A stretch of 64,000 bases of DNA from Candidatus Cryptobacteroides sp. (GCA_045600405.1 JAZRXV010000142.1:15261-79260); one strand, 5' to 3'. Shown: positions 47,256-64,000, numbered from the stretch's first letter. Program-made: numbers and translations. Notes: generated by a model not told the origin, from the letters alone.

Positions 47256-48671
47256 ATGGCAAGAAACATTTCCGTCTGCGATATTACATTGCGGAAGTCT
47301 GCGGACAATTCCGGCAGCGCACTTCCGTTCCGGATCAAGATCGAAGTCGCCAAACTTCTTTCGGGGCTCGGTGTATCCGTTATAGAAACTTCCCCTATAC
47401 TTAATGGGAAGACAGATTATTTCCTGGTCAAATCCCTGGCATCAGCAGTGTCTGCCAGCACGGTCTCCGTGCCTGTCAATATACTTGATGCCGCCAGTCC
47501 GGCAACGGCATGGGATGCACTGAAGGATGCAGCGCATCCGAGGCTTCAGGTGCCCGTACCGGTCAGCACTGTCCAGATGGAATACTTCTGCCACAAGAAG
47601 CCGGAGGGAATCCTGAAGCTCGTCGCTGACAATGTCGCTGCGTGTGCGGCCCTTTGCCCGGAGGTAGAATTCGTCGCCGAGGATTTCGGACGCAGTGACC
47701 CCGACTTCCTTATGTCGGCCATTGATACGGCTGTCAGCAATGGCGCCAAGGTAATAACGGTTGCCGATGCTGCCGGTAACCTTCTGGAAGATGAATTCTT
47801 CGCATCCATCAGGAAGATACGTGAGGCTATCCCGGCGGAAGTCAAATTGGGAGTGTATTGTTCCAATGACCTCTATCTTGCTGACTCCTGCGCGGTTTCT
47901 GCGGTCAGGGCCGGTGCTGATGAGGTCAAGGTCGTATCCATGGGCAATCCGACGGTCTCCCTCAAGAGGTTCCCGCGCATCCTCAATGCAAAGGCTGATG
48001 TATGCGATGCCGTTTGTGGTGTGAAACTCACCGAACTTGACCATGTCATAGCCAAGATCCATAAGTTGTGTGAAGTATGCCGTGCGAAGTCTCCTACTTC
48101 TCTGGGGCTGCCTTCCGGCAGCGATGAGATACGTCTCTCTGTCCATGATGACATGGCATCGGTGCTCAATGTCATCAGCAGCCTTGGATATGACCTCGGC
48201 GAAGAGGACAGCAGGAAGGTCTATGATGCATTCGTACGCCTCTCATCCGGTGACAAGGTAATAGGAGCCAAGGAGATAGATGCTATCGTTGCATCTGTGG
48301 CATTCCAGGTGCCTCCAACCTTCCATATGGAGAGTTTTGTGATAAATACGGGCAATGTTATGACGCCTACCTGCCACATAAGACTGAGGAAAGGTGATGA
48401 GATGCTTGAAAGCGTGTGCATAGGTGACGGACCTGTGGATGCCGCATTCCTTGCAATAGAGAAGGTTGTCGGCCGTCATTTCGAACTGGATGATTTCCAG
48501 GTCCGGAGCGTTACGGAAGGCCGGGAAGCCATGGGTGAGACCATAGTCCGTCTGCGTCACGACGGACGCCTTTATTCGGGAAGGGGAGTCTCAAAGGATA
48601 TCATAGCATCAGGCGTGCTTGCATACCTGAATGCTGTCAATAAGATAGCATACGAGGAGGAACAGGCTTGA
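47256..48671 (+). CDS. Degenerate 2-isopropylmalate-synthase-like protein with intact C-terminal regulatory domain
   Basis: DITLRKSAD instead of DTTLRDGEQ; GVYCSND instead of HxHND; conserved GDGPVDA...GRGVSKDII. Confidence 0.8.
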   Translation: MARNISVCDITLRKSADNSGSALPFRIKIEVAKLLSGLGVSVIETSPILNGKTDYFLVKSLASAVSASTVSVPVNILDAASPATAWDALKDAAHPRLQVPVPVSTVQMEYFCHKKPEGILKLVADNVAACAALCPEVEFVAEDFGRSDPDFLMSAIDTAVSNGAKVITVADAAGNLLEDEFFASIRKIREAIPAEVKLGVYCSNDLYLADSCAVSAVRAGADEVKVVSMGNPTVSLKRFPRILNAKADVCDAVCGVKLTELDHVIAKIHKLCEVCRAKSPTSLGLPSGSDEIRLSVHDDMASVLNVISSLGYDLGEEDSRKVYDAFVRLSSGDKVIGAKEIDAIVASVAFQVPPTFHMESFVINTGNVMTPTCHIRLRKGDEMLESVCIGDGPVDAAFLAIEKVVGRHFELDDFQVRSVTEGREAMGETIVRLRHDGRLYSGRGVSKDIIASGVLAYLNAVNKIAYEEEQA

Positions 48672-51148
48672 AACTCTCATTTTCAACAAGAGGCTGGACC
48701 GATCTCGGCTGGGATGAGGTTATGCAGAGCGCCTGCGAGATGCGTTTCTCGGGGATAGAGGTATATAATGTATTCAAGAGCCCGGAACTTACGGGCATAG
48801 GCGGACCTTTCCACAAATATTCCGTCATGCAGACCGCCAGAGGTCTCAGGGGGCGTGGCTTGACCATACCGTGCTTCGACAGTTCCAACGATATTTCCGA
48901 AGACGGTGCAGGGATGCTGACTGAAGTCGGAGACCTTATCCGCCTGGCGTCCGATATGGGATCCGGCTATGTCTGTGTCTTTGCAAAGGAGGACAGACAG
49001 GACGTGATAAGGCGGAATCTTGACAGTCTGATACCGCTCGCCCGTCAGAAGGGTGTGACCATACTTATCAAGACCAGCGGAGTCTTTTCGGATACATCCC
49101 TTCTGCGTGCGCTCATGGACGATTTTGCCTGTGACCAGATCGCTGTGCTCTGGGATGTGCATCATCCATACAGGGACAAGGGCGAGAACCCTGTGGATTC
49201 AATCAAGAACCTCGGTGCCTATGTCAGACATGTGCATCTGAGGGACAGCGATGACAGCGGTGCATATTGTATGGTAGGGGAAGGCACTTTCCCTCTGGCC
49301 GAGGTCATGAGGTCGTTGTCCTCCATTGACTATGATGGTTATGTCTCATTGGAATGGAAGCCTGACTGGATGCGGGAGATGGTCGACAGGGACGTGATCT
49401 TCCCATATTTCGTCAATTACATGGAGCGTTTCGAACGGGTCGATCCGCGCCGTAAGGACAGACTTTATCCCAACCATGACGGAAGCGGGTACTATGTATG
49501 GAAAAAGGATGATCTCATCGATCTGACCTTCTCCAAGGTGCTTGACAGGATGGTCGAAGAATTCCCTGACCAGTATTGCTTCAAATACACGACTTTGGAC
49601 TATACCAGGACTTATTCGGAATTCCGCAGGGATGTTGACGATTTTGCAAGGGCTCTGGTGTCGCTTGGCGTCCGTCCCGGAAGCAAGGTCAGCGTATGGG
49701 CTACCAATGTACCGGCATGGTACATTACTTTCTGGGCAACGGTGAAGATAGGTGCCGTCCTCGTGACCATGAACACCGCATACAAGTCCCATGAGGCCGA
49801 GTATCTGCTCAGGCAGTCCGACACCCATACCCTTGTCATGATTGACAGCAGCCTTGACTCCAACTATCGCAAGATAATAAACGAACTCTGTCCTGAGATA
49901 AAGAAGAGCGTGGCGGGGGAGCCCCTTCATTGCTCGAGACTTCCTTTCCTCAGGAATGTCATATCGGTAGGTTTCAAGCAGAAAGGCTGCCTCACATTCG
50001 AGGAAGCCATGGCGCGCAAGGCCATGGTGCCGTATGAAACAGTGGCCGGTATGGCGGCTGAAGTGCGTCCGGACGATGTATGCAACATGCAGTACACCTC
50101 CGGGACCACCGGATTCCCGAAGGGAGTGATGCTCACGCATTACAATGTCGTGAACAATGGTAAATGTATCGGCGACAGGATGGGTCTTTCCACGGCGGAC
50201 AGGATGATGATACAGGTTCCTATGTTCCATTGTTTCGGCATGGTGCTTTCCATGACCTCTTCGATCACCCATGGGGCGACACTATGCCCTATGCCTTATT
50301 TCTCCGCCAAGTCTTCGCTGTCCTGTATCAATCAGGAGCATATCACCTGCTTCAACGGGGTGCCGACCATGTTCATAGCCATGTTCAACCATCCGGATTA
50401 CCGCAAGACGGATTTCTCCTATATGCGTACGGGCATAATGGCCGGTTCGGGCTGCCCTCCGGAACTTATGCGCAGGGCTGCCAGGCCGGATGAGATGAAT
50501 ATGCGCGGGATAGTGAGCGTTTACGGTCAGACCGAGACCGCCCCGGGATGCACGATGTCATCATGGACGGACAGCATTGACGTCAGGTGCGACACTGTAG
50601 GATATCCGTTCCCTCATGTCCAGTGCAAGGTGATAAATCCTGAGACCGGAGAGCCTGTGAAGCCGGGTGAAAACGGGGAGTTCTGCTCCCGCGGATACAA
50701 TACCATGAAGGGCTATTACAAGATGCCGGATGCCACGGCACAGGCTATAGACGCTGATGGATGGATGCATTCCGGGGATCTGGCATGTGCTGATGAGGAT
50801 GGGAACTACCGCATCACCGGCCGTCTTAAGGATATGATAATCCGTGGTGGTGAGAACCTGTATCCTAAGGAGATAGAGGAATTTATCTATACTCATCCTT
50901 TCGTGAAGGATGTGCAGGTCATCGCTATCCCTGACAAGAAATATGGGGAGGAGGCAATGGCATGCATAGTGCTGAAGGATGGCTGCAGTATCACCGAGCC
51001 TGAGATGCGCGAGTATATCACCGGGCATCTGGCACGTCACAAGGTCCCGAAATACATCGAATTCGTCGAAGGTTTCCCTATGAATGCTGCAGGAAAGGTC
51101 CTGAAGTACAAGATGAGGGAAGAATATATCGCCAAGCTTGGCTTGTAG
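48668..51148 (+). CDS. Xylose-isomerase-like TIM barrel fused to an AMP-dependent acyl-CoA synthetase
   Basis: WDVHH, HVHLRD, SLEW in aa 1-250; QYTSGTTGFPKG, YGQTE, GRLKDMIIRGGEN, GKVLK after; TTG start overlaps the upstream TGA. Confidence 0.85.
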   Translation: MKLSFSTRGWTDLGWDEVMQSACEMRFSGIEVYNVFKSPELTGIGGPFHKYSVMQTARGLRGRGLTIPCFDSSNDISEDGAGMLTEVGDLIRLASDMGSGYVCVFAKEDRQDVIRRNLDSLIPLARQKGVTILIKTSGVFSDTSLLRALMDDFACDQIAVLWDVHHPYRDKGENPVDSIKNLGAYVRHVHLRDSDDSGAYCMVGEGTFPLAEVMRSLSSIDYDGYVSLEWKPDWMREMVDRDVIFPYFVNYMERFERVDPRRKDRLYPNHDGSGYYVWKKDDLIDLTFSKVLDRMVEEFPDQYCFKYTTLDYTRTYSEFRRDVDDFARALVSLGVRPGSKVSVWATNVPAWYITFWATVKIGAVLVTMNTAYKSHEAEYLLRQSDTHTLVMIDSSLDSNYRKIINELCPEIKKSVAGEPLHCSRLPFLRNVISVGFKQKGCLTFEEAMARKAMVPYETVAGMAAEVRPDDVCNMQYTSGTTGFPKGVMLTHYNVVNNGKCIGDRMGLSTADRMMIQVPMFHCFGMVLSMTSSITHGATLCPMPYFSAKSSLSCINQEHITCFNGVPTMFIAMFNHPDYRKTDFSYMRTGIMAGSGCPPELMRRAARPDEMNMRGIVSVYGQTETAPGCTMSSWTDSIDVRCDTVGYPFPHVQCKVINPETGEPVKPGENGEFCSRGYNTMKGYYKMPDATAQAIDADGWMHSGDLACADEDGNYRITGRLKDMIIRGGENLYPKEIEEFIYTHPFVKDVQVIAIPDKKYGEEAMACIVLKDGCSITEPEMREYITGHLARHKVPKYIEFVEGFPMNAAGKVLKYKMREEYIAKLGL

Positions 51149-51172
51149 AATACTGAAATCTTAACCTGTCTG

Positions 51173-52753
51173 TCAGGCCTCTTCTTCATCGGCAAGTGAA
51201 GAGGAGGCCTTTACAGTAACTGTGCGTTCGTAGCATTTGAACATGGAGTCTATCTTCTCCTTGTCGGCGACCTTCGAGAATAAACTGACTGCCGGTACGA
51301 CCACCATTCCTGAAAGCATTGCGAGTACGCCGGCATTGATAGGTGAAGTGAAGTACGGTGAAAGGAAGGTCTTTCCTGTGAAAGTGCAGTACATGCAAGC
51401 GCACATGATAAGGACTCCGACAGCAAAACTTACCCATACTGAGGCTTTGGTGGTGCGTTTCCAATAAAGGCCATAGAGGAACGGGGCGAGGAATGCTCCT
51501 GCCAGGGCACCCCAGGATATGCCCATAAGTTGGGCGATGAAGGTGACCGAACTCTTTGCCTGTATGATTGCAAGGACGGATGAGACCGCTATGAAGAACA
51601 ATACGAAAATGCGTATCCAGCCGAGTTTCGCCTTGTCGCTCATGCGCTTTCCTGTATGTTCGGCGGCGGGTGCTATGATGTCCAGGGTCAGGGTGGACCC
51701 TGATGTGAGTACCAGTGATGACAGGGTGGACATCGATGCCGAAAGGACAAGGATTATCACGATGGCGATCATTAGGTCAGGCAGGGACTCGAGCATGGAA
51801 GGAACAATGCTGTCGTATACGGGTGCTCCTGCTGCCGTATACTCGATGGTCCCTGAGTACAGCCTGCCGAAACCTCCGAGGAAGTAGCATCCTCCTGCGA
51901 CGATCAGGGCAAACATGGTGGAGATGAACGTTCCTTTGCGGATTGCGTCCTCGTCACGGATTGCGTAGAATTTGCCGACCATCTGAGGAAGTCCCCAAGT
52001 TCCGAGAGATGTCAGAAGGACGACACCAAGAAGATATATCGGCTGAGGGCCGAGGAAGGAAACGAACGCTCCATTAAGCCCCGGTGCGCTTTCTGCCTGA
52101 ATTGATGAAAGGCTCTGGACAGCCTGTGTGAAACCTCCGTTGAATTTCAGTACCGAGAATACCACGGCGCAGATTCCCACAAGCATTATCAAACCTTGTA
52201 TGAAGTCGTTGATTGCAGTTGCCATATAACCTCCCACCAGGACATATATGCCGGTCAGGATTGCCATGGCAAGCACGCACCATGCATAGTCGATGCCGAA
52301 AGCCATGCCGAACAGGCGTGACAGACCGTTATACAGGGATGCGGTGTAAGGAATCAGGAATACGAAGACAATTACTGAAGCCGCGACCTTGAGTGCCCTG
52401 GAACCGAATCGTGCGCCGAAGAAATCGGGCATTGTTGCACTGTGCAGATGCTGTGTCAGCAGACGGGTGCGCCTTCCGAGTATCCTCCAGGCCAGCAGGG
52501 AGCCGATAAGTGCATTTCCGAGTCCTATCCAGGTTGATGCGAGGCCGTATTTCCATCCGAACTGTCCTGCATATCCCACGAAGATGACGGCGGAGAAATA
52601 GGATGTTCCGAATGCGAAGGCTGTAAGCCAGGAACCGACATTGCGTCCTCCGAGGACGAAACCCTGTACGTTTGACGCGGTCTTGCGGCAATAGATGCCT
52701 ACACCGATCATAATGGCGAAGAATATCGCCAGGAGAGAAATCTTGAGAAACAT
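51173..52753 (-). CDS. Sodium:solute symporter family transporter
   Basis: FVLGGR, SYFSAVIFVG, DFIQG, LSASMSTLSS; multiple TM helices; own TACCTTTG promoter near 52777-52784. Confidence 0.9.
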   Translation of the reverse strand: MFLKISLLAIFFAIMIGVGIYCRKTASNVQGFVLGGRNVGSWLTAFAFGTSYFSAVIFVGYAGQFGWKYGLASTWIGLGNALIGSLLAWRILGRRTRLLTQHLHSATMPDFFGARFGSRALKVAASVIVFVFLIPYTASLYNGLSRLFGMAFGIDYAWCVLAMAILTGIYVLVGGYMATAINDFIQGLIMLVGICAVVFSVLKFNGGFTQAVQSLSSIQAESAPGLNGAFVSFLGPQPIYLLGVVLLTSLGTWGLPQMVGKFYAIRDEDAIRKGTFISTMFALIVAGGCYFLGGFGRLYSGTIEYTAAGAPVYDSIVPSMLESLPDLMIAIVIILVLSASMSTLSSLVLTSGSTLTLDIIAPAAEHTGKRMSDKAKLGWIRIFVLFFIAVSSVLAIIQAKSSVTFIAQLMGISWGALAGAFLAPFLYGLYWKRTTKASVWVSFAVGVLIMCACMYCTFTGKTFLSPYFTSPINAGVLAMLSGMVVVPAVSLFSKVADKEKIDSMFKCYERTVTVKASSSLADEEEA

Positions 52754-52795
52754 GACCAACTATGCTACTAACAGCACAAAGGTAAGAAATATATG

Positions 52796-53698
52796 TTATA
52801 AAACCATCCCTGACGAATGTCTGTTCTGATTGCGGAATTCGGATGCTGTGATTCCGACATATTGCTTGAAGGCGCAGCAGAACCTGCTGGCGGACTCGTA
52901 GCCTGTTTCGAACGCTATCTCCTTTATACTTTTGTCGGAAGATGTGAGCAGTGTCTTGGCGTGGTTCATCCTCTGGTTGAGGGAGTATTCCGCCATGGAC
53001 ATCCCCGTTATTGTCTTGAACTGGTCCCGGAGCAGGGAATAGCTCATGCCGAGCTGTGAGGCTATCTCGGAAGGGGAGATGTGCGCTGAAAGGTCTTCCC
53101 TCAGCAGTATCTGGGCTTTCTGTATCTTTTCAAGATTCTTTATCCTCGTGGCCGAAGCGTTGGCAATTTTGTGATAGACATACCCCAGGAGTGCGTAGAT
53201 GAAACCTCCTATGGCCTGCTGGCTTCCGAGTTTATCCGAATTTGCCAGATACAGGATGCGTCCATAGATGTCGAACACGGTATCGCTGCTGCCTATCGGC
53301 AGGACAGGATTCTGCCTGCTGAAGAAATTGCCTATCATGGCATCCAGATGACTGTCTCCGCGGAATCCCACCCATATCTCGGTCCATCCGGTTTCTTCTT
53401 CCGGACAGTATTCGTGCTCTTCGCCGGGGAACACTATTATCATGTCCCCTTCGCTGACCTTCGTGCGGGGACATGACTTGCTCCAGAAGTAACCCTGCCC
53501 GCTTGTTATGTACACCAGCTGGTATTCGTCAAGGGTGCGGCCGCTGCCCGGGAAAAGATATTTTTCCGGGTGGGGAAGCGAAGGATAGAGGGTGTGGGGA
53601 GCGCTCGTCTGCTTGCCGACTGTGGTGCATACGAGCCCCCATAATTCATCTTTGCCCTGGTGGGCGAGATAATGCATCCTGTCTTCTTTTGCAATCAT
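52796..53698 (-). CDS. AraC-family transcriptional regulator
   Basis: Cupin-like N-terminus GRTLDEYQLVYI, PGEEHEY; C-terminal SIKEIAFETGY...F...FK...G.T.SEFR. Confidence 0.92.
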   Translation of the reverse strand: MIAKEDRMHYLAHQGKDELWGLVCTTVGKQTSAPHTLYPSLPHPEKYLFPGSGRTLDEYQLVYITSGQGYFWSKSCPRTKVSEGDMIIVFPGEEHEYCPEEETGWTEIWVGFRGDSHLDAMIGNFFSRQNPVLPIGSSDTVFDIYGRILYLANSDKLGSQQAIGGFIYALLGYVYHKIANASATRIKNLEKIQKAQILLREDLSAHISPSEIASQLGMSYSLLRDQFKTITGMSMAEYSLNQRMNHAKTLLTSSDKSIKEIAFETGYESASRFCCAFKQYVGITASEFRNQNRHSSGMVL

Positions 53699-53722
53699 TG
53701 GAGCGGGTGGATGGGTTCACTG

Positions 53723-53793
53723 CAAATATAGCATATATTTTATGTTTTTGCCAAAAGTTCGGGTCCGCCTCTCCGGTCTGGCAAAAACATAAA
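53723..53793. promoter_or_regulatory. araC -7 promoter plus a 15-bp inverted-repeat operator candidate
   Basis: TATATTTG on - (53723-53730); TTTATGTTTTTGCCA (53739-53753) / TGGCAAAAACATAAA (53779-53793). Confidence 0.6.
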
Positions 53794-53882
53794 TCCTTAT
53801 GTTATTTTCGGGAAATAAGTTCCCCGTATTTTTCGTTTCTTTGTTATAACTGAAATCAGGCAAAACTTTAACCGATATAACA

Positions 53883-55226
53883 ATGGCAAATGTTGTAATC
53901 ATGCCCAAGCAGGGCCAGTCAGTCGAAAGCTGTATTGTAACGGAATTCAAGAAAAAAGTCGGAGACAAAGTATCTGCAGGCGAGGTCCTGTTCAGCTACG
54001 AGACCGACAAGGCTTCTTTCGAGGAGGAGTCAAAATTCGACGGTACCGTACTTGCGTGCTTCTTCAATGACGGGGATGAAATCCCTTGTCTGACAAACGT
54101 AATGGTGATAGGAAACGAAGGCGAGTCCGTGGACGAGTTCAAGCCGTCGGCGGGCGGTGCATCGGATAGTGCCGCGCAGGCTGTGTCCGAGGAGTCTTCA
54201 GTCCAGGTTGAGGAGGAAGCGCCGTCCTTTGCTTCCGGTCCGGTGGTGGCCGGGGCTCCTGTGTCTCCGCGTGCACGTAAGCTGGCGGTAGAGACGGGAG
54301 TGGATCCGTCCACCGTAGCAGGCTCAGGTCCTTACGGACGGATAATAGAGCGCGATATCGAGGCTGCCGCTGCGTCACGTCCGGCCCTTAGCGGACTTGC
54401 CCGGGCAAAGATGGCGGAAGGCGGATATGCCGCACCGCAGCATGGCTCCGGCCTTGCCGGAATGGCAAAAGGTGGCGACCTCAAAGTGTGCAAGCCTAAC
54501 CATACGGACATTGCAGGAGAAGGCTCCGAATTTCAGGTGGTCAAGATGAGCAACATGCGCAAGCTCATCGCCAAGTCCATGTACAATTCCCTGCAGAATT
54601 CCGCTCAGCTCACTCATATGCTCGGTGCTGACGCCCGCAGGATACAGGCTCTCCGCAAGAAGGCCAAGAAGGCTCTCGAGGAAGGCCGCATAGATGCCAA
54701 CATCACCATCAATGACTTCGTCTGCTTTGCAGTTGTCAAGGCTCTCCAGAAGTTCCCTAACCTCAATTCCCACTGCCTCGGTGATTCCATGAGGCTCTTC
54801 AGCTCAGTCAACCTCGGTTGCGCAGTCGATACCGAGCGCGGTCTCATGGTGCCTGCAGTGCTCCATGCCGATGAACTTAACATAATCGGTCTCAGCAAGC
54901 AGCTCAAGAAGATCGCTGAAGATGCGAAGAAGGGCTGCGTGAATCCTGACCTCCTTTCTCCGGAAGCCGCGTCATTCACCGTATCCAACCTCGGCGGTTT
55001 CGGAGTGGAATGGTTCACTCCTATAATCAACGTTCCTCAGAGTGCTATCCTTGGGGTCGGAACCATCGTCCCTCGTCCTAAGGACCTCGGCGGCGGAGTG
55101 TATGCGTTTGTGCCGTACATGGGCCTGTCCCTTACCTATGACCATCGCGCTGTCGATGGTGGCGAGGCAACCCGTTTCCTCAAGCAGATCGCGGTCGAAA
55201 TAGAAAACCTTGAAGTTGAATTTTAA
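53883..55226 (+). CDS. Dihydrolipoamide acyltransferase (E2)
   Basis: Lipoyl ETDKA; E3-binding SPRARKLA..GSGPYGRI; catalytic DHRAVDG. Confidence 0.92.
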   Translation: MANVVIMPKQGQSVESCIVTEFKKKVGDKVSAGEVLFSYETDKASFEEESKFDGTVLACFFNDGDEIPCLTNVMVIGNEGESVDEFKPSAGGASDSAAQAVSEESSVQVEEEAPSFASGPVVAGAPVSPRARKLAVETGVDPSTVAGSGPYGRIIERDIEAAAASRPALSGLARAKMAEGGYAAPQHGSGLAGMAKGGDLKVCKPNHTDIAGEGSEFQVVKMSNMRKLIAKSMYNSLQNSAQLTHMLGADARRIQALRKKAKKALEEGRIDANITINDFVCFAVVKALQKFPNLNSHCLGDSMRLFSSVNLGCAVDTERGLMVPAVLHADELNIIGLSKQLKKIAEDAKKGCVNPDLLSPEAASFTVSNLGGFGVEWFTPIINVPQSAILGVGTIVPRPKDLGGGVYAFVPYMGLSLTYDHRAVDGGEATRFLKQIAVEIENLEVEF

Positions 55227-55241
55227 AACAAATATCATATC

Positions 55242-56621
55242 ATGTACGATTTAGCGATTATCGGTGCGGGTCCCGGCGGTTATGTTGCAGCCGAGCGTGC
55301 AGGTGCGAAAGGCCTCAGCGTGGTGCTTTTCGAAAAGAATGAACTTGGTGGCGTATGTCTCAACGAGGGCTGTATCCCGACCAAGACTCTCCTTTACAGT
55401 GCCAAGGTGTTTGATTATGCGAGACATTCTGACAAGTATGGAGTGAAGGTGGAGAACGCCGAAGTTGACTTCCCTGAGATAATGAAGCGCAAGACCAAAG
55501 TCGTCCGCAAGCTTGTCGGTGGAGTCAAGGCCAAGATGAAGGGCGCAAAGGTGGAGGTTGTCAAGGGAGAGGCCATGATCCAGGGCCGTTCTGCCGAAGG
55601 TATCACCATCAAGTGCGGCGATGCGGACTATCAGGTGCGCAACCTCCTTATCTGCACCGGATCCGAGGCTACGGTTCCTCCTATCCCTGGACTTAAGGAT
55701 GCAGGTGACGTCATTGCGACCAACCGTGAGATCCTTTCCCTCGAAGAGCAGCCGAAGGAACTTGTCATCATCGGCGGTGGAGTTATTGGAATGGAGTTCG
55801 CAAGTTTCTTCAACAGCATTGGTACAAAGGTTACCGTTGTCGAGATGCTTCCGAAGATACTCGGACCGCTTGATGATGAGATCAGCGGCATGCTCCAGGG
55901 CATATATGAGAAGAAGGGCGTGGAGTTCAATCTCCGCTGCAAGGTCGTCGGCATCGAGGGCAATACCGTCGTTTACGAGGATCCTGAAGGAAAGACCTGC
56001 CGCGTCAGCGGTGACAGGATACTTGTCAGCGTGGGGCGCCGTGCCAATATCCAGGGCTTCGGTCTGGAGAATCTCGGTATCGAGCTGGCAAAGAATCCTG
56101 CCGGACGTCCTTACGGCATCAAGGTGGATGACCGCATGCGTACCAATATCCCTAACGTGTATGCTGCAGGTGACGTCACGGGCTTCAGCCTGCTTGCGCA
56201 CACTGCAAGCCGTGAAGGCGAGGTTGCAATCAATAATATTTGCGGAGTCGAGGATCATATGAGGTATGATGCGATCCCTGGTGTCGTGTACACCAATCCT
56301 GAGGTGGCCGGTGTCGGTCTTACCGAGCAGGAGGCTGCGGCCAAGGGTACAGACTGCACTGTGGTCAAGCTTCCGATGGCATATGCCGGACGCTTTGTCG
56401 CCGAGAATGAAGGCGGCGAGGGAATATGCAAGGTCATCGTTGGCAAGAAGCACCACGAGGTGCTCGGTGTCCACATGCTCGGCAACCCTTGCTCCGAGAT
56501 GATACACAGCGCCTGCATAGCAATCGAGGCCGAGATGACGGTCGAGCAGCTCAAGGAAGTCGTGTTCCCTCATCCTACAGTGTCAGAAATAGTCAAGGAA
56601 ACAATATTCACATTGAAATAA
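55242..56621 (+). CDS. lpdA: Dihydrolipoamide dehydrogenase (E3)
   Basis: GAGPGG, GGVCLNEGCIP, GGGVIG, HPTVSE. Confidence 0.95.
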   Translation: MYDLAIIGAGPGGYVAAERAGAKGLSVVLFEKNELGGVCLNEGCIPTKTLLYSAKVFDYARHSDKYGVKVENAEVDFPEIMKRKTKVVRKLVGGVKAKMKGAKVEVVKGEAMIQGRSAEGITIKCGDADYQVRNLLICTGSEATVPPIPGLKDAGDVIATNREILSLEEQPKELVIIGGGVIGMEFASFFNSIGTKVTVVEMLPKILGPLDDEISGMLQGIYEKKGVEFNLRCKVVGIEGNTVVYEDPEGKTCRVSGDRILVSVGRRANIQGFGLENLGIELAKNPAGRPYGIKVDDRMRTNIPNVYAAGDVTGFSLLAHTASREGEVAINNICGVEDHMRYDAIPGVVYTNPEVAGVGLTEQEAAAKGTDCTVVKLPMAYAGRFVAENEGGEGICKVIVGKKHHEVLGVHMLGNPCSEMIHSACIAIEAEMTVEQLKEVVFPHPTVSEIVKETIFTLK

Positions 56622-56636
56622 TTAAATCCCAATACC

Positions 56637-59111
56637 ATGCCTAAGTCATTATATGTAGATCCACAGGTCGTCAGACAGACCGGTGAAATCACTTTCAAAC
56701 CAATCCCTGTCTGCCAGTACAACAAATCCGTAAAGGATGAACTTGCCGAAGGCAATTTCACCAAGGATGACATTCTCCGCATCTACCGCGACATGTTTGT
56801 GATCCGTGAGTTCGAAACCATGCTCAACCTTGTCAAGACCACCGGTGGATACAACGGAACAGAGTACAACAACCCGGGCCCTGCCCACCTTTCAGCCGGT
56901 CAGGAAGCCGCCGCTGTCGGTATGGCCTATGCACTTGATACCGATGACTTCATCTTCGGTTCCCACCGTTCGCATGGTGAGATTCTGGCAAAGGGACTCC
57001 GTTCAATCCAGATTCTCCCTGATGACGAACTCGAGAAGATAATGAACGAGTTCTGGGGCGGCGCTACTGTAGCAGTCGCAAAGAAGGGATTCACCGGCAC
57101 CACCAAGGAACTCGGCGTCCGTTTCCTTCTCTATGGTGCAATGGCGGAAATCTTTGCACGCGTGACCGGTTTCAACAAAGGTCTCGGCGGATCAATGCAT
57201 ACTTTCTTCACTCCATTCGGTATCTATCCGAATAATGCAATCGTAGGTGGTTCGGGATCCATTGCAGTAGGTGCCGCACTTTATAAGAAGGTCAATCGCA
57301 AGAAGGGTATCGTCGTTGCCAATCTCGGTGACGGTGCCATGGGCCGCGGCCCTGTGCTCGAAGGTATGACCTTCGCATCGATGGACCAGTTCCATACCCT
57401 TTGGGAGGGTGATATGAAGGGTGGCCTTCCTGTCCTGTTCAATATCATGAACAACCAGTACGCTATGGGTGGACAGACCCGCGGCGAGACCATGGGCTAT
57501 GATTTCGCAGCCCGTCTCGGTGCTGGGTTCAACCCTGACGAGATGCATGCAGAGCGCGTGGACGGTTACAATCCTCTTGCTGTCATCGACGCATTCCGCA
57601 GGAAGAAGGCTCTCCTTGAGAAGAAGGAGGGACCGGCCCTTCTCGATGTCGTGACATACCGCTACAGCGGCCACTCTCCAAGCGACCAGTCCTCATACCG
57701 TACCAAGGAAGAGATCGAGGCCTGGCTCAAGGAAGACTGCATCATTGCCTTTGGTGAGAAATTGAAAGCCGCAGGCCTTGCTGATGACGCTGCTCTCGAA
57801 GCTATCCAGAAATCTGTCAAGGACGTAATGTTCGACTGTTACAAGCTTGCCATCGATCCTGAACTCTCGCCTCGCATGGACCTTGTCAAGGACAACGAAC
57901 TTCTTGGTGACATGATGTTCTCCAACGGTAGCGTTGATTCCATGAGCGATGCCAAGCCTGACGTGCTTATGCCTCTTGAGGACAATCCTCGCGTCAAGCA
58001 GATCGCCGGCAAAGAGCGCTTCCATGTTGACAAGGACGGCAAGCCGGTCAGCAAGATGAAGACATTCAATATCCGCGACGGTATCTTCGAGGCCGTTGTG
58101 GACAGGTTCTACAAGGATGCTTCCCTCGTTGCATACGGTGAGGAGAACCGTGAATGGGGCGGTGCGTTCGCAGTTTACCGCGGACTTACCGAAGCGCTTC
58201 CATATCACCGTCTGTTCAACTCTCCTATTTCCGAGGCGGCCATCATAGGCACATCCATCGGATATGCCATGTGCGGTGGCCGTGTAATACCGGAAATCAT
58301 GTACTGCGACTTCCTCGGTTGCTGCGGAGACGAGATATTCAACCAGCTCCCTAAGTGGCAGGCTATGTCCGGCAATATCCTCAAGATGCCTGTTGTCGTA
58401 CGTGTATCCGTAGGTTCCAAGTACGGCGCACAGCATTCACAGGACTGGACGTCCCTCTGTACCCATATCCCGGGTCTCAAGGTCGTGTTCCCAGTCACTC
58501 CGTATGATGCCAAGGGTCTCATGAATGCAGCACTTCAGGGTACCGACCCTGTCATCTTCTTCGAGAGCCAGCGCATTTACGACATGGGTGAGAAGTTCCA
58601 TGAGGGCGGTGTGCCTGAGGGATATTATGAGATTCCTTTCGGTGAGCCTGATGTCAAGCGTCAGGGCAAGGATGTAACCTTCCTGACGATCGGAGCCACC
58701 CTTTACCGTGCTCTTGCCGCTGCAGACATGCTTAAGGAGAAATACGGCATGGAGGCAGAGGTGATAGACGCACGCACCATGGTACCGTTCAATTATGAGA
58801 AGGTCATCGAGTCAGTCAAGAAGACCGGACGTATCATCATAGCCGGTGACGCTACCGCACGCGGATCATTCCTCAACGATCTTGCTGCCAATATCACTGA
58901 TATGTGCTTCGATTATCTCGATGCCGCTCCTGTGGTGCTCGGTTCACGCAACTGGATTACGCCTTGCCATGAACTTGAGGCAGCGTTCTTCCCTCAGCCG
59001 GAATGGTTCCTTGATGCGATCAATGAGAAGATGGTCCCTCTCAAGGACTATACTCCTACCACCAACATGACGGCTGCACAGCAGGTGATCCGTTCAAAGA
59101 AGGGTATATAG
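56637..59111 (+). CDS. Fused E1 alpha/beta ThDP-dependent dehydrogenase (PDH/acetoin-dehydrogenase-like)
   Basis: GQEA, SHRSHG, GDGA...NNQY, YRYSGHS; beta part SPISEAAIIG, GAQHSQ, EVIDART. Confidence 0.88.
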   Translation: MPKSLYVDPQVVRQTGEITFKPIPVCQYNKSVKDELAEGNFTKDDILRIYRDMFVIREFETMLNLVKTTGGYNGTEYNNPGPAHLSAGQEAAAVGMAYALDTDDFIFGSHRSHGEILAKGLRSIQILPDDELEKIMNEFWGGATVAVAKKGFTGTTKELGVRFLLYGAMAEIFARVTGFNKGLGGSMHTFFTPFGIYPNNAIVGGSGSIAVGAALYKKVNRKKGIVVANLGDGAMGRGPVLEGMTFASMDQFHTLWEGDMKGGLPVLFNIMNNQYAMGGQTRGETMGYDFAARLGAGFNPDEMHAERVDGYNPLAVIDAFRRKKALLEKKEGPALLDVVTYRYSGHSPSDQSSYRTKEEIEAWLKEDCIIAFGEKLKAAGLADDAALEAIQKSVKDVMFDCYKLAIDPELSPRMDLVKDNELLGDMMFSNGSVDSMSDAKPDVLMPLEDNPRVKQIAGKERFHVDKDGKPVSKMKTFNIRDGIFEAVVDRFYKDASLVAYGEENREWGGAFAVYRGLTEALPYHRLFNSPISEAAIIGTSIGYAMCGGRVIPEIMYCDFLGCCGDEIFNQLPKWQAMSGNILKMPVVVRVSVGSKYGAQHSQDWTSLCTHIPGLKVVFPVTPYDAKGLMNAALQGTDPVIFFESQRIYDMGEKFHEGGVPEGYYEIPFGEPDVKRQGKDVTFLTIGATLYRALAAADMLKEKYGMEAEVIDARTMVPFNYEKVIESVKKTGRIIIAGDATARGSFLNDLAANITDMCFDYLDAAPVVLGSRNWITPCHELEAAFFPQPEWFLDAINEKMVPLKDYTPTTNMTAAQQVIRSKKGI

Positions 59112-59112
59112 T

Positions 59113-60207
59113 ATGAATATTCTCGACGTCAACGCACATCTCCACACTCCTTATTCCTTCAGCGCCTTCAACGATGTGCCGCAGGCACTCGACATGTCTG
59201 CTGAGGAAGGAGTGAAGGTAGTGGGTATCAACGATTTCTATTCGCTTGACGGATATGGACAGTGGAGTGAAGAGTGCGGCATGCGCCGCCTCTTCCCCCT
59301 TTTCAACATAGAGTTCATCTCCCTCAATGTCGAAGATCAGACCGCCGGCGTAAGGGTCAATGACCCTAACAATCCCGGCCGTACCTATCTCAGCGGAAAG
59401 GGACTGGCATATCCTGTGATACTCAAGGGTCAGGAAGCCGCCCGGCTCGCTGCAGTCAAGGCTGAATCCAATGCTCAGGTGGAGAAGATGTGCGGTAAGC
59501 TCAACGCCCATCTTGATGCCGTTGGAGCCGGATTCAACATCGATTTCGGCAAGGTCCGCGAAGAACTTACAAAGGGTTCCATCCGCGAAAGGCATCTCGC
59601 CAAGGCTCTCCGCCTTGCCGTGGAGGCCAACGTCAATACCGGTGTCGAGGCCTTCTATTCCCGTCTCTTCAGTGGTAAGGCTCTCAAGTCATCGCTTGAC
59701 AATCCGGCAGCCCTTGAGAATGAAATACGCGGCAACCTTCTGAAATCCGGTGGCGCGGCATTCGTTCCCGAGGATCCGTCAGCATTCCTTCCTATGCAGA
59801 CTGTCTGTGACATCATCAAGGCGGCAGGCGGTATTCCGACCTATCCTTTCCTGGCTGATGACGCCAAGGGATGTTTCACCGATTTCGAAGGAGATCTGCA
59901 GAAATGCGCGGACATACTCAAGCGGAGGGGAATCCATTCGGTAGAGTTTATTACAACCCGCAACACCACAGCCGTACTCGAACAGTACGCTTCCTATCTT
60001 GTGGATGAGGGTTTCGTGGTGACCTTCGGCTCGGAGCACAATACGCCTGCGCTTGAGCCGATAAAACTGCGTACACGGGATTGTGACCATTTGAGCGAAA
60101 AGCTCCGTGAGATCAATTATCGAGGAGCATGCTACGTTGCCGCCCATCAGGCCGGTCTCGACAGCGTTGACGCAGGTGATGAAATCATAACTAAAGCAAC
60201 CATATGA
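59113..60207 (+). CDS. PHP-domain-like metallo-hydrolase
   Basis: NAHLHTPYS, GINDFY, NIEF, GSEHN. Confidence 0.7.
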   Translation: MNILDVNAHLHTPYSFSAFNDVPQALDMSAEEGVKVVGINDFYSLDGYGQWSEECGMRRLFPLFNIEFISLNVEDQTAGVRVNDPNNPGRTYLSGKGLAYPVILKGQEAARLAAVKAESNAQVEKMCGKLNAHLDAVGAGFNIDFGKVREELTKGSIRERHLAKALRLAVEANVNTGVEAFYSRLFSGKALKSSLDNPAALENEIRGNLLKSGGAAFVPEDPSAFLPMQTVCDIIKAAGGIPTYPFLADDAKGCFTDFEGDLQKCADILKRRGIHSVEFITTRNTTAVLEQYASYLVDEGFVVTFGSEHNTPALEPIKLRTRDCDHLSEKLREINYRGACYVAAHQAGLDSVDAGDEIITKATI

Positions 60208-62162
60208 CTACACTGGAATCATTGATAGCCATTTCCCGCAAGTACGGGGCCGACCCGCGCTATGTAATCGCCGGCGGCGGCAACACTTCATGCAAGGATG
60301 ACAGGCATCTTTGGATAAAGGCCAGCGGCCATGCCCTGGCTTCCATAGACGAAGAAGGTTTTGCTGTCCTTGACAGGTCCCTCCTGAACATGATGGGGGA
60401 GAAGCAATACAGCAAGGATAGCGCAGAACGTGAGGCCCAGGTCAAGAATGACCTTGCAAATGCGAACCTTACGAAGGACAGACGCCCGTCCGTGGAGACA
60501 TCGCTCCACAACTGCATGGGTTATACCTTCGTAGTGCATACGCACCCCACTGCCGTCAATGCCCTGATGTGCTCTGCAGATGCACAGCAGGCATGTGCGG
60601 AGCTTTTCCCGGATGCACTTTATATTCCATACACGGATCCAGGCTATACACTTTTCAAGAAAGTATATGACAGGATCCGGGAATACAAGGCTGCTGCCGG
60701 CAAGGAGCCTCAGGTCATTTTCCTCCAGAACCATGGTATTTTCGTGGGAGCCGACTCCGTAGAGGAGATAGAGAAGATATATGATGAAGTATTCTCCAAA
60801 CTGGCAGCGAAGCTACCTGCAATCCCGGAAGGGGATAGCCCTGTTTGTGAATGTATTTCCGAGACTGTTCCGGCTATACGCTCCATCCTCAGCCGCAGCG
60901 GGCGCGGACTCAAGACCCTCAGGATTACCAGCAATGCCATTGTGGCTTCGTTTACGGAAAGCCGCGAAGCGTTCAAGGCTGTCTCCGTTCCTTTCTCCCC
61001 TGATGAGATTGTTTACTGCAAGTCGGAATATATCTATATCGATCCGAAGGATGCGGATGACCTCCTTAAACAGGCCGAGAAAAAGATTGAGGCATACGTC
61101 GAAAAGCGCGGCCATACTCCTAAGGTGATCCTCATAAAGGGAATAGGTCTTGTCGCTGTTGGCGATAACGCCAGGAATGCCGCCATTGTCACCGATGTGT
61201 TCACAGATGCCATGAAGATAGCGTATTCGTCAGCAGCCTTCGGTGGACCTCATCCGATGACAAAGCGCCAGATCGAATTCATAGACAACTGGGAGGTGGA
61301 GAATTACCGCCGCAAGGTCAGCGCTTCCAAGGCATGCGGACGTGTCGAGGGCAAGACCATCATAGTTACCGGCGCCGCTCAGGGGTTCGGTGAGGGGATA
61401 GCCCGCAACCTTGTGCTTCAGGGTGCGAACATCGTTGTCGCAGACCTCAATGAGGCGGTTGGGCAGAAGACAGCCGATTCCTTCAATGAAATCGCAGGAA
61501 ACAACAGGGCTATCTTCGTGAAGACCAACGTTGCCGACATGGAAAGCCTTCATAACCTCATGCGTCAGACCGTACTCAATTTCGGTGCTCTGGATGCATT
61601 CGTCAGCAATGCCGGCGTCCTCCGTGCAGGTGGACTGGAGGCCATGACTCCTGAGAATTTCGAGTTTGTCACGAACATCAACTATAAGGCTTATTTCTTC
61701 TGTGCGAAGGTGGCCAGCCATATAATGAAGATCGAGACATCTTATGATCCGGAGTATTTCGCCGACATTATCCAGGTCAATTCGAAGAGCGGTCTGCGTG
61801 GCTCAAAGGCTAATTTCGCATATGCCGGTGGAAAGTTCGGCGGTATAGGTCTCACCCAGTCCTTCGCCCTTGAACTCGCTCCGTTCCGTGTCAAGGTCAA
61901 CAGCATATGTCCGGGCAACTTCTATGACGGACCGCTCTGGAGCAATCCTGTCAACGGCCTGTTCATCCAGTACCTCGCAGCAGGCAAAGTGCCGGGAGCC
62001 AAGACTGTGGATGACGTCAAGACCTTCTATCTCAATCAGGTGCCTATGCACAAGGGATGCAACCCTGAAGATGTGACCAAGGCAATTCTTTATGCAATAG
62101 AGCAGACCGGCGAGACCGGACAGGCAATTCCTGTCACCGGAGGTCAGGTTATGCTTTCTTAA
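60204..62162 (+). CDS. Class II aldolase fused to an SDR (sorbitol-6-phosphate-dehydrogenase-like)
   Basis: GGGNTS, RPSVETSLH, HTHP, NHG; then TGAAQGFG, NAG, NSKSG, YAGGK. Confidence 0.88.
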   Translation: MTTLESLIAISRKYGADPRYVIAGGGNTSCKDDRHLWIKASGHALASIDEEGFAVLDRSLLNMMGEKQYSKDSAEREAQVKNDLANANLTKDRRPSVETSLHNCMGYTFVVHTHPTAVNALMCSADAQQACAELFPDALYIPYTDPGYTLFKKVYDRIREYKAAAGKEPQVIFLQNHGIFVGADSVEEIEKIYDEVFSKLAAKLPAIPEGDSPVCECISETVPAIRSILSRSGRGLKTLRITSNAIVASFTESREAFKAVSVPFSPDEIVYCKSEYIYIDPKDADDLLKQAEKKIEAYVEKRGHTPKVILIKGIGLVAVGDNARNAAIVTDVFTDAMKIAYSSAAFGGPHPMTKRQIEFIDNWEVENYRRKVSASKACGRVEGKTIIVTGAAQGFGEGIARNLVLQGANIVVADLNEAVGQKTADSFNEIAGNNRAIFVKTNVADMESLHNLMRQTVLNFGALDAFVSNAGVLRAGGLEAMTPENFEFVTNINYKAYFFCAKVASHIMKIETSYDPEYFADIIQVNSKSGLRGSKANFAYAGGKFGGIGLTQSFALELAPFRVKVNSICPGNFYDGPLWSNPVNGLFIQYLAAGKVPGAKTVDDVKTFYLNQVPMHKGCNPEDVTKAILYAIEQTGETGQAIPVTGGQVMLS

Positions 62163-62180
62163 TTTTTAAAAGACACCATC

Positions 62181-63446
62181 ATGAAAACCAAAGCAGTCAG
62201 ATTATACGGTAAAGAAGACCTCCGTCTCGAGGAATTCGAACTTCCACAGATCAAGGAAGACGAGATACTTGCCAAAGTGGTGAGCGACAGCATCTGCATG
62301 TCCTCATATAAATCATCACACCAGGGACCCGAGCATAAGAGGGTTCCTGATGACGTAGCCATCCATCCTACCATCATCGGTCACGAATTTGCGGGAGAGA
62401 TTGTTGAGGTCGGCAAGAAGTGGCAGGACAGTTTCAAACCTGGTGACAAGTTCTCCATCCAGCCTGCCCTTACATATGAGGGCGGTCCTGTCGGTGTGCT
62501 CAGTGCTCCGGGATACTCATATCAGTATATTGGCGGAGATGCCACCTATGTGGTCATTCCTCATGAAGTGATGGATCAGGGATGTCTGCTTCCATATAAT
62601 GGAGAGGGCTTTTATCCGGCATCGCTCAGCGAGCCGCTGTCCTGTGTCGTGGGCGCCATGCATGCCTGCTACCACACGACTCCGGGGTCTTATGTCCATT
62701 CCATGGAGATCAAGGATGGTGGCAGACTTGCACTCCTTGCCGGTGTAGGCCCTATGGGACTTGCATGTATCAATTATGTGCTTCACCGTGAAGACCGTCA
62801 TCCGGCCCTCTTCGTCGTCACTGATATAGATCAGGCGCGTCTGGACCGTGCGGCAAGCCTTTATACTAAGGAATTTGCCGCCAGCCGCGGCATCGACCTC
62901 AGGTATGTCAATACCAAGGATTGCGATGCGGTTGCCGAGCTCCGTGCAATCACAGGAGGGGAGGGATATGATGAGGTAGTGGTCATGGCACCTGTCCCGG
63001 CAGTAGTTGAGCAGGCCGATGCCATACTTGCCTTCGACGGCTGCCTCAATTTCTTCTCAGGTCCTTCAAAGTCCGATTTCAAGGCTCCGTTCAATTTCTA
63101 CAACGTGCACTATGCATCAACACATGTGGTCGGCACCAGCGGTGGCAATACGGACGACATGAAGGAAGCCCTCTATCTTATGGGCAAGGGAATGGATCCT
63201 GCAGGATTGGTGACCCATATCGGAGGCCTGAACGCCGTGATAGACACGACACTCAACCTTCCTTCCATTCCGGGTGGTAAGAAACTCATTTATACACACA
63301 TCGACCTTCCTCTCACTGCGATAGCGGATTTTGCGGTGCTCGGAAAGACCGATCCTATGTTCGCTGAACTCGCCAGACTCTGTGCAGCCCATAATGGTCT
63401 ATGGAATGTAGAAGCTGAGAATTACCTGCTCAATTATAAAAAATAA
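62181..63446 (+). CDS. L-sorbose-1-phosphate-reductase-like Zn-dependent dehydrogenase
   Basis: RLYGKEDLRLE, DSICMSSYK, IIGHEF, EPLSC, GPMG, GTSGG. Confidence 0.82.
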   Translation: MKTKAVRLYGKEDLRLEEFELPQIKEDEILAKVVSDSICMSSYKSSHQGPEHKRVPDDVAIHPTIIGHEFAGEIVEVGKKWQDSFKPGDKFSIQPALTYEGGPVGVLSAPGYSYQYIGGDATYVVIPHEVMDQGCLLPYNGEGFYPASLSEPLSCVVGAMHACYHTTPGSYVHSMEIKDGGRLALLAGVGPMGLACINYVLHREDRHPALFVVTDIDQARLDRAASLYTKEFAASRGIDLRYVNTKDCDAVAELRAITGGEGYDEVVVMAPVPAVVEQADAILAFDGCLNFFSGPSKSDFKAPFNFYNVHYASTHVVGTSGGNTDDMKEALYLMGKGMDPAGLVTHIGGLNAVIDTTLNLPSIPGGKKLIYTHIDLPLTAIADFAVLGKTDPMFAELARLCAAHNGLWNVEAENYLLNYKK

Positions 63447-63450
63447 CGAT

Positions 63451-64000
63451 ATGACCCCAACCAACTACCTTGCAGTGGATCTTGGAGCCACCAGCGGACG
63501 CACCATTATTGCCTCCTATGACGGAGACAAGGTCGAGATGAACGAGTTCACACGTTTCAAGAACCCTATCATCCAGACCGGCGGCCACATGTTCTGGGAT
63601 CTCCCGCATCTGTATGACGAGATCATCATCGCTCTCAAGAAAGTCGCATCCGAAGGTATCAAGATTGACTCCATCGGTATCGATACCTGGGGAGTGGACT
63701 TTGCCTTCTTCGGCAAGGACGGCCAGCTGCTGGGCCTCCCTTATTGCTACAGGGACCCGCACACCGATGGCGCCATCGACCGCTATTGCACCGAACATGA
63801 CAAGCGCGGTGTGTATGAGCGCACCGGTATCCAGTTCATGGATATCAACTCGCTTTTCCAGCTGGACACCCTCAAAAGGGAGAATTGCGAGGCCCTGAAG
63901 CATGCGGACAAGATACTCTTCACGCCTGATGCCCTTATCTATATGCTGACCGGCAAGGCAATATGCGAGTATACCATAGCTTCAACTTCCCAGATTCTCA
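63451..64000 (+). CDS. Rhamnulokinase-like FGGY kinase (runs off the window end)
   Basis: Manual translation MTPTNYLAVDLGATSGR...SIGIDTWGVDF...YRDPHT...TGIQFMDINSLFQL. Confidence 0.88.
   Translation, partial: MTPTNYLAVDLGATSGRTIIASYDGDKVEMNEFTRFKNPIIQTGGHMFWDLPHLYDEIIIALKKVASEGIKIDSIGIDTWGVDFAFFGKDGQLLGLPYCYRDPHTDGAIDRYCTEHDKRGVYERTGIQFMDINSLFQLDTLKRENCEALKHADKILFTPDALIYMLTGKAICEYTIASTSQIL

Follow-up and report, generated by a model that had tools for sequence, protein, structure and literature searches.

Genetic organization of the operon

The DNA analyzed here, called the window below, is a stretch of 64,000 nucleotides (nt) of Candidatus Cryptobacteroides sp. (GCA_045600405.1, JAZRXV010000142.1:15261-79260). 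In its last part, at positions 52796..64000, genes for the E1, E2 and E3 components of a dehydrogenase complex form an operon with genes for a PHP-fold protein, a fusion of an aldolase-like region and a short-chain dehydrogenase/reductase (SDR) domain, a SorE-like reductase and a rhamnulokinase-like kinase (Table 1). This operon represents a rhamnose/fucose module with its own E1-E2-E3 complex, which is real, conserved and biochemically uncharacterized.

The original prediction had described a tight operon, with gaps of less than 20 nt, divergent from araC. This description is accurate: eight open reading frames (ORFs) are present, the domain scans agree, and the intergenic gaps from the E2 gene through the kinase gene measure 15, 15, 1, -4, 18, and 4 nt. 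The spacer between araC and the E2 gene is 184 nt. Homologues of the AraC-family regulator (34-41% identity) are encoded directly upstream of rhaB in relatives, and the protein is probably a RhaR-type rhamnose activator of the operon. Most of the relatives at 83-91% are uncultured Bacteroidales from the rumen or gut, several of them titled Candidatus Cryptobacteroides.

Table 1. Genes of the operon region and the basis of their assignment
Feature	Position in window	Strand	Basis
AraC-family regulator	52796..53698	minus, divergent	Pfam/NCBIfam match
E2: one lipoyl, one E3-binding and one acyltransferase domain	53883..55226	+	Pfam
E3, dihydrolipoyl dehydrogenase	55242..56621	+	TIGR01350, 499.8 bits (cut-off 408.8)
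Fused E1 alpha/beta, 824 aa, thiamine diphosphate (ThDP)-dependent	56637..59111	+	E1_dh, Transket_pyr and Transketolase_C in one ORF
PHP-fold protein, 364 aa, RNase AM/TrpH type	59113..60207	+	Fold match of predicted model
Class II aldolase-like region fused to SrlD-like SDR	60204..62162	+	Pfam, NCBIfam, identity comparison
SorE/YggP-family Zn-dependent ketose-1-phosphate reductase (Zn-dependent alcohol dehydrogenase)	62181..63446	+	Similarity to SorE and YggP
Rhamnulokinase-like FGGY kinase, 472 aa, extending beyond the window	63451..64000	+	Closest family is rhamnulokinase

Conservation of the link between E1 and the sugar genes

The association of E1 with the sugar genes is found in two phyla. 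E1 was located in 80 loci of other genomes, many of them broken at contig ends, and its neighbors were counted within 10 kb: E3 was found in 71, E2 in 69, the PHP-fold gene in 62, the aldolase/SDR gene in 61 (a few of these matches being weak) and SorE in 51 loci. When metagenome loci were anchored at the PHP-fold gene instead, E1 was seen in 48 of 80. In Clostridia, the same draw of genomes was searched for each gene (399 genomes; 400 for PHP); given that relatives are not independent of each other and that the genomes are incomplete, we rely on counts rather than on p-values. E1 was present in 81/399 genomes, the SorE-like gene in 96/399, the PHP-fold gene in 69/400 and a rhamnulokinase-like gene in 194/399. 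The SorE-like gene was found in 72 of the 81 genomes with E1 vs. 24 of the 318 others, the PHP-fold gene in 66/81 vs. 3/318, and the rhamnulokinase-like gene in 69/81 vs. 125/318. In addition, 49 loci were read, i.e., 40 of the 90 clostridial matches listed, chosen for long contigs, and nine earlier loci; here, SorE was located near E1 in 22, PHP in 15, the kinase in nine and fucI in two cases. The linkage of E1 to the operon is not due to chance, and E1, the SorE-like reductase and the PHP-fold protein constitute a dedicated module.

Orthologues of E1 with 53-54% identity are also present in rhizobia (16 of the 40 matches listed). In the three rhizobial regions that were read, ketose kinase genes accompany those for an alpha/beta hydrolase and a lipoyl domain, and no SorE, SrlD or PHP gene is present. 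The position of E1 orthologues beside ketose kinases fits a ketose phosphate as the donor, and suggests that the wider E1 family may take more than one kind of kinase-made ketose phosphate. In the rhizobial plasmid loci L098, L099, and L100, the free lipoyl domain and the hydrolase replace a full E2, and sugar ABC transporters adjoin; such an arrangement would release the product as a free acid and not as an acyl-CoA. A link of the Rhizobium pRL8 orthologue to homoserine was considered and dropped, as the accessible part of the source merely lists pRL80081 as a hydrolase (PMC5118466).

Some variants of the module are worth recording. In the clostridial locus L105 (3822-5975), a 717-aa glycyl radical enzyme, which scores below all cut-offs, is encoded between SorE and E2. 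In a sub-lineage represented by L049, L078, and L163-L166, split transketolase genes are divergent from E2-E3-E1-SorE, and the PHP, aldolase/SDR and tandem aldolase genes are relocated. The transketolase genes beside E1 were given little weight as evidence: they occur in six genomes or loci, all from a single sub-lineage, which probably reflects one rearrangement, and PHP, aldolase/SDR, and kinase genes were located elsewhere in 4/4 cases checked.

The sugars served by the operon

The original prediction left the sugar unknown, a position that can now be abandoned. The contig extends 1.3 kb beyond the window and stops inside a gene for L-rhamnose isomerase. Its end shares an exact overlap of 141 bp with another contig of the same genome, C53, via which the operon continues past the kinase gene with rhaA, rhaT, a gene for a small hydrolase and an lplA gene encoding 230 aa, followed by a convergent gene for a tandem class II (FucA-like) aldolase of 434 aa. 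Thus, the isomerase, transporter, and lipoate ligase that had been suggested as downstream genes to look for are all present. RhaA (416 aa) is 51% identical to its E. coli counterpart, and the kinase shows 42% identity to E. coli RhaB and only 25% to FucK. The RhaB and RhaT homologues score slightly below the respective cut-offs (492.7 bits vs. 527.95 and 364.4 vs. 369). Homologues of RhaA, RhaB, and RhaT, i.e., of the L-rhamnose catabolism proteins, are encoded together in one operon, and fucI and fucP are located on a different contig of the genome.

Similar genes recur in relatives. Of the 80 E1 loci, 16 contained rhaT, 14 rhaA, 13 rhaB, and 26 the tandem aldolase gene, and among the 80 PHP-anchored metagenome loci, fucI was located upstream of the E1 operon in five and rhaA in four. 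Where fucI was seen in two of the 49 loci read, FucI exceeds its cut-off. A sample of the genus consisted of 25 genomes (the own genome and 24 others) with a completeness of 61-98% (own genome 81%), which makes absences soft; here, FucI was found in 10 of the 13 genomes with E1 vs. one of the 12 without. Since rhamnose and fucose genes are thus present in the operon, in the genome and in relatives, the operon very probably serves 6-deoxy-L-hexoses, i.e., L-rhamnose and L-fucose.

Two minor features of the downstream genes may be mentioned. The 230-aa lplA product lacks the C-terminal region of TIGR00545 (L094 8012-8704, minus strand), and the ORF between rhaT and lplA (C53 16712-17257) is alpha/beta-hydrolase-like, with homologues near the operon in several loci.

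Mutual exclusion of E1 and RhaD in the genus sample

In the 25 genomes, E1 was found in 13, rhaA in 17, canonical RhaD in five, fucI in 11, and the tandem aldolase in 12. E1 and canonical RhaD never occurred together, as RhaD was found in 0/13 E1 genomes and all five RhaD genomes lacked E1. Of the 17 genomes with rhaA, 11 have E1, five have RhaD and one has neither, the contig ending in rhaA; hence, 5/6 rhaA genomes without E1 carry canonical RhaD. One genome of another family combines E1 with a partial RhaD-like match of 43%. Neither canonical RhaD nor lactaldehyde reductase was found in the own, 81%-complete genome or in any of the 13 E1 genomes of the genus; the latter enzyme exceeded its cut-off in one of 41 genomes, which is E1-negative and has the gene directly after rhaA. 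In one RhaD genome, a lone E3 gene, whose product is 79% identical to the E3 of the operon, closes the rha operon and looks like a remnant. Together, the E1 module appears to replace the RhaD route in this genus.

In loci L169 and L171, a glycerol-1-phosphate dehydrogenase-like gene comes after the operon of the RhaD type, with a GlpT-like transporter gene downstream and, in L171, a HAD-like ORF in between. This arrangement is possibly another route for lactaldehyde.

The E1-E2-E3 complex

E1 belongs to the 2-oxoacid/acetoin dehydrogenase E1 superfamily. Its ThDP motif (GDG..N, at 231-273) and residues H346, E533, and H599 are invariant in 24 aligned rows, both catalytic histidines (alpha and beta) are retained, the HR motif is AcoA-like, and E2 and E3 genes are linked. 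In the predicted model, the beta part resembles the beta subunits of branched-chain 2-oxoacid dehydrogenase (BCKDH) and pyruvate dehydrogenase (PDH) with a TM score of 0.88, and a fold search matched known E1, transketolase, and 2-oxoglutarate dehydrogenase folds only, giving no pointer to the substrate. The protein further carries family-specific inserts and invariant basic residues; the insert in the alpha part counts 43 residues, a long linker is present, and identity to separate-subunit references is 32-36%. Residue 562, in the beta-domain motif after D558, is Cys in the own E1 and Arg in most orthologues.

Within the superfamily, E1 stands apart. It remains below the cut-offs of the PDH/E1 models (TIGR03182, 208 vs. 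393.85; TIGR03181, 146.2 vs. 411.35; NF006667, 225.1 vs. 321), and E2 is under every NCBIfam E2 cut-off, with 47.8 bits vs. 307 for the AcoC model. A quick tree was built from 42 rows, with few references, which bear database labels and not measured functions. In it, the 27 rows of the E1 family form a clade of their own (SH-aLRT 100, stem 2.43). The branching between this clade, the AcoA-like references and the alphaproteobacterial PDH-like ones is not resolved, and the E1s of the Firmicutes type and the fused ones of Bacteroidales stand apart from it. E1 does not fall inside the AcoA reference clade (34% identity to an annotated acoA/B pair), and it shares 25% identity with the fused Bacteroidales E1s of ~680 aa, which form a separate clade and which we take to be BCKDH. 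By these sequence-based tests, E1 is no member of either AcoAB or PDH. Family scores and tree thus agree with the original prediction that it is probably not a PDH, and they also set it apart from ordinary BCKDH; together with the co-occurrence of the PHP gene, they led us to drop a plain PDH or BCKDH as the best reading. The complex most likely works like acetoin dehydrogenase, with a sugar phosphate as the donor. No second E1 of the PDH/BCKDH type was found in the own genome, which does contain five matches to the ferredoxin-oxidoreductase alpha-domain.

The SorE-like, SrlD-like, aldolase-like and PHP-fold proteins

Over about 420 aa, the SorE-like reductase shares 50% identity with Klebsiella SorE and 57% with E. 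coli YggP, and it contains the Zn and NAD motifs of this family. The original prediction had named a sorbitol-6-phosphate dehydrogenase as the partner of SorE. The SDR domain of the fusion would be of the polyol-phosphate type and is nearer to SrlD (32% identity) than to SorD or RhaW (27% each). It scores 210 vs. a cut-off of 307 on the SrlD model NF009050, which is nevertheless the best-scoring SDR model. Clostridial counterparts, to which it is 40-44% identical, are themselves 44-52% identical to SrlD, and one of them exceeds the NF009050 cut-off (391 vs. 307).

The combination of a class II aldolase with an SDR in a rha locus is also found in RhaEW (YuxG), a rhamnulose-1-phosphate aldolase/lactaldehyde dehydrogenase (PMC3870299). 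However, the fusion scores 253.6 bits vs. a cut-off of 567.75 on the RhaEW model TIGR02632, where the true RhaEW of a relative reaches 947, and it is 23-28% identical to RhaEW; its SDR half resembles SrlD, and the clostridial counterparts of the two halves are separate genes. The terms "dehydrogenase complex," "lipoate," and "acetoin" are absent from the accessible part of the RhaEW paper (PMC3870299). A route in which RhaEW gives lactate, followed by PDH, was therefore dropped, as the fusion fails the RhaEW model, its SDR half is SrlD-like, and no LutB was found in the own genome. The aldolase-like region of the fusion keeps the FucA-type Glu and three Zn-binding His residues, and so does the first half of the tandem aldolase, the second half of which is degenerate. 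In 17 of the 80 loci (L019-L024, L028, L029, L036, L037, L040, L044, L046, L048, L061, L014, and L015), a gene for a 1091-aa tricorn protease-like protein is located between the aldolase/SDR and SorE genes; its homologue in the own genome is on another contig.

The PHP-fold protein of 364 aa has no Pfam or NCBIfam match. Its predicted model (pLDDT 88) would form a PHP barrel, as it matches RNase AM by Foldseek (E 3.5e-12). Judged by what we take to be the metal ligands of RNase AM, H9, H11, E67, and E308 are retained, whereas the positions of D20, H45, H198, and H257 of RNase AM are occupied by F16, F42, F246, and N310, respectively, and the position of H83 is ambiguous. Thus, the full three-metal set is absent, with four ligands kept and at least four lost. 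The PHP label of the original prediction holds for the barrel fold but not for a canonical phosphoesterase metal site, and with this loss the designation as phosphoesterase is not established. The protein may be a one-metal epimerase or isomerase, with uronate isomerase as an analogue, or an atypical phosphatase.

A possible route from rhamnose and fucose to acetyl-CoA

The original prediction had proposed, among other options, that E1 cleaves a hydroxyketone derived from a deoxy sugar. We retain this as the best reading, with rhamnose and fucose as the sugars: the dedicated E1-E2-E3 complex would cleave a 1-deoxyketose-6-phosphate derived from them to acetyl-CoA and a tetrose-4-phosphate, a proposal that we put forward tentatively, at slightly less than an even chance.

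Successive action of SorE and SrlD shifts the carbonyl of a ketose from one end to the other. By homology, RhaT, RhaA, and RhaB, and FucP and FucI encoded elsewhere, would produce L-rhamnulose-1-phosphate (-P) and L-fuculose-1-P. In the weakest step, the aldolase-like domains and the PHP-fold protein would adjust C3/C4 to give 6-deoxy-L-sorbose-1-P. Next, the SorE-like enzyme, if acting as its family does, would reduce C2 with NADH to form 1-deoxy-D-glucitol-6-P (in reversed numbering), and the SrlD-like domain would oxidize the carbon beside the methyl group, resulting in 1-deoxy-D-fructose-6-P. As the carbonyl would then be located beside the methyl group, this product is an acetoin-like methyl ketol, from which ThDP-dependent cleavage yields an acetyl unit. 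E1 would split it between C2 and C3 as AcoAB splits acetoin, E2 would generate acetyl-CoA and E3 NADH, and D-erythrose-4-P would enter the pentose phosphate pathway by transketolase, which is present in the own genome.

The C3/C4 adjustment is suggested by formal bookkeeping. When the three 6-deoxyketoses are followed with the usual SorE/SrlD stereochemistry, only 6-deoxy-L-sorbose-1-P gives a central metabolite. This compound is epimeric to fuculose-1-P at C3 and corresponds exactly, as its deoxy analogue, to L-sorbose-1-P, which we take to be the substrate of SorE. Without the adjustment, rhamnulose-1-P and fuculose-1-P would both formally give an acetyl unit and D-threose-4-P (or L-erythrose-4-P). 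Taken separately, the version with the adjustment is doubtful, and the version without it slightly more so. The most far-reaching form of the proposal, i.e., a widespread third route of anaerobes in which rhamnose and fucose are converted via a PHP-fold epimerase to 6-deoxy-L-sorbose-1-P, then by SorE/SrlD to 1-deoxy-D-fructose-6-P and finally to acetyl-CoA, erythrose-4-P, and NADH, the last step being the work of lipoyl-dependent ketose-phosphate dehydrogenases of a new class, with no loss as lactaldehyde or propanediol, is rather unlikely to be right in all its parts.

Several observations weigh against the proposed cleavage. The C3 configuration of rhamnulose-1-P and fuculose-1-P is opposite to that of the presumed SorE substrate, and epimerization or an altered specificity would therefore be needed. 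Nine of the 81 clostridial E1 genomes have no SorE match and 15 have no PHP gene, and several E1 loci consist of E2-E3-E1 with only a regulator or other kinases and no adjoining sugar module; therefore, the E1 family is not bound to one pathway. The tandem FucA-like protein is present in 12/13 E1 genomes, and, as the aldolase-type domains have intact catalytic residues, aldolase cleavage may still take place. No transaldolase or fructose-1,6-bisphosphate (FBP) aldolase was found in the own, 81%-complete genome, the control of one search matching nowhere; a housekeeping FBP aldolase had been considered as a candidate for the epimerizing step. Finally, C. saccharolyticus forms 1,2-propanediol, acetate, H2, and CO2 from rhamnose in a ratio of 1:1:1:1 according to the accessible part of the report (PMC4187192). 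This is the yield of aldolase cleavage followed by lactaldehyde reduction, and it counts against the proposed route as the main flux in this organism under those conditions.

Transaldolase or fructose-6-phosphate-aldolase-like genes occur inside the module in three loci (L074 13140-13805; L131 3503-4171 and 8095-8742; L140 5462-6109). They would fit the handling of tetrose-phosphate or 1-deoxyfructose-6-phosphate.

Comparison with known systems

A similar gene cluster is known in Caldicellulosiruptor (Athe_0695-0706 in C. bescii and Csac_0865-0876 in C. saccharolyticus), which shares genes for a FucA-like protein, a predicted aldolase, SrlD, SorE, lipoylation, E2, E3, a single-gene E1, and RhaA as far as the accessible parts of the sources go. 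It differs in having DeoR regulators, LipA/LipB and a separate srlD, where the operon described here has AraC, LplA, and a fused SrlD-like domain, and the orthology of Athe_0704 and E1 is based on gene order and annotation only. The clostridial locus L107 has the Caldicellulosiruptor gene order, srlD<>sorE-lipB-lipA-E2-E3-E1. In the available text, the acetoin dehydrogenase homologues Athe_0702-4 of the RhaR2 cluster are predicted to handle L-lactaldehyde, srlD and sorE are listed as "Sorbose?" and Athe_0697 as hypothetical (PMC8579813); disposal of lactaldehyde is thus predicted there, and SorE and SrlD are not tied to the complex. According to the accessible text on C. saccharolyticus, Csac_0865-0876 are strongly induced when rhamnose is supplied, and the role of the remaining genes is called unclear (PMC4187192). 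Hence, where the original prediction spoke of an uncharacterized pathway, this applies to the chemistry, whereas a similar cluster has already been published as a prediction (PMC8579813). The word rhamnose does not occur in PMC8269263, and our literature search, which did not reach most subscription papers, found no biochemical study of a characterized version of the module.

The complex resembles AcoABCL in its ThDP-dependent E1 alpha/beta, lipoyl E2 and E3, its AcoA-like motifs, its neighborhood in the tree and the proposed cleavage of a methyl ketol. It differs in that AcoA and AcoB are separate proteins, whereas alpha and beta are fused here, in that E2 fails the AcoC model, and in its sugar-phosphate gene context. 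With the SorE plus SorD/SrlD modules of Klebsiella and E. coli, the operon shares the SorE-family reductase, the SrlD-family dehydrogenase and the head-to-tail carbonyl shift. Unlike these, it has no phosphotransferase system, it would act on a kinase-made 6-deoxyketose-1-P, its SDR is fused to an aldolase-like region, and its product would be a methyl ketone.

Alternative explanations

The aldolase domains could instead produce dihydroxyacetone phosphate and L-lactaldehyde, with the complex oxidizing the latter to lactyl-CoA or cleaving hydroxyacetone derived from it to acetyl-CoA and formaldehyde. AcoAB-type enzymes presumably act on small hydroxyketones, which would suit this explanation, as would the catalytically intact aldolase domains of the E1 genomes in the genus, none of which has a lactaldehyde reductase over the cut-off, and the failure to find LutB in the own genome. 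In its lactaldehyde form, it is the published prediction for C. bescii discussed above (PMC8579813). However, it leaves without a role the SorE-like, SrlD-like, and PHP-fold proteins, the very ones most tightly linked to E1, and it offers no reason for the absence of canonical RhaD from E1 genomes. The 1:1 yield of propanediol in C. saccharolyticus also counts against it, within the part of the report at hand (PMC4187192). We regard this explanation as unlikely, though worth keeping in mind.

That the complex is a divergent pyruvate or other 2-oxoacid dehydrogenase, merely co-regulated with the rhamnose genes, e.g., for the supply of NADH, is improbable. In favor of this reading, the E1 is the only one of the PDH/BCKDH type found in the own genome, it shares fold and catalytic residues with PDH/BCKDH E1s, some E1 loci are without sugar genes, and close homologues bear the automatic JGI label 2-oxoisovalerate dehydrogenase E1. 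Against this stand the scores below the PDH cut-offs and the long-stemmed clade separate from PDH and BCKDH-type rows described above, the five ferredoxin-oxidoreductase matches in the own genome and the nearly one-to-one presence of E1 and the PHP-fold gene.

Least probable is that SorE, SrlD, and E1 serve L-sorbose or another rare ketose or polyol, with E1 releasing a glycolyl unit from an ordinary ketose phosphate and the rha genes as mere neighbors: the "Sorbose?" label in C. bescii (PMC8579813) and the xylulokinase-, ribulokinase-, or fructokinase-like, arabinitol dehydrogenase-like, and psicose 3-epimerase-like genes beside rhizobial and some clostridial E1 copies point that way, but rhaA, rhaB, rhaT, and fucI recur in Bacteroidota and Clostridia in several independent gene orders, and SorE and SrlD would convert L-sorbose-1-P to fructose-6-P with no need for E1.

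Significance and upstream genes

Rhamnose and fucose are major sugars of pectin and mucin, and the textbook anaerobic routes lose half of their carbon as lactaldehyde, propanediol, or propionate. If the proposed cleavage of a deoxyketose phosphate to acetyl-CoA and a tetrose phosphate is correct, it would represent a new activity in the PDH superfamily with a sugar phosphate as donor, different fermentation products would have to be predicted for communities of the gut, the rumen, and digesters, and the common mis-annotation of E1 as PDH or BCKDH would be removed. The module is present in 81/399 sampled genomes of Clostridia and in 13/25 genomes of this genus of gut and rumen Bacteroidales. 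The significance is tempered by the fact that a link to rhamnose has been predicted in print before and that all chemistry is inferred. C. bescii is a culturable and genetically tractable carrier, and defined candidate substrates exist.

Upstream of araC, three adjacent ORFs are located on the + strand at 47256-52759 of the window, labeled from reading their translations. The first (471 aa) is isopropylmalate synthase-like with an altered N-terminal motif, the second (826 aa) is an apparent fusion of a TIM-barrel sugar isomerase-like part and an acyl-CoA synthetase, and the third (528 aa) resembles a sodium:solute symporter.

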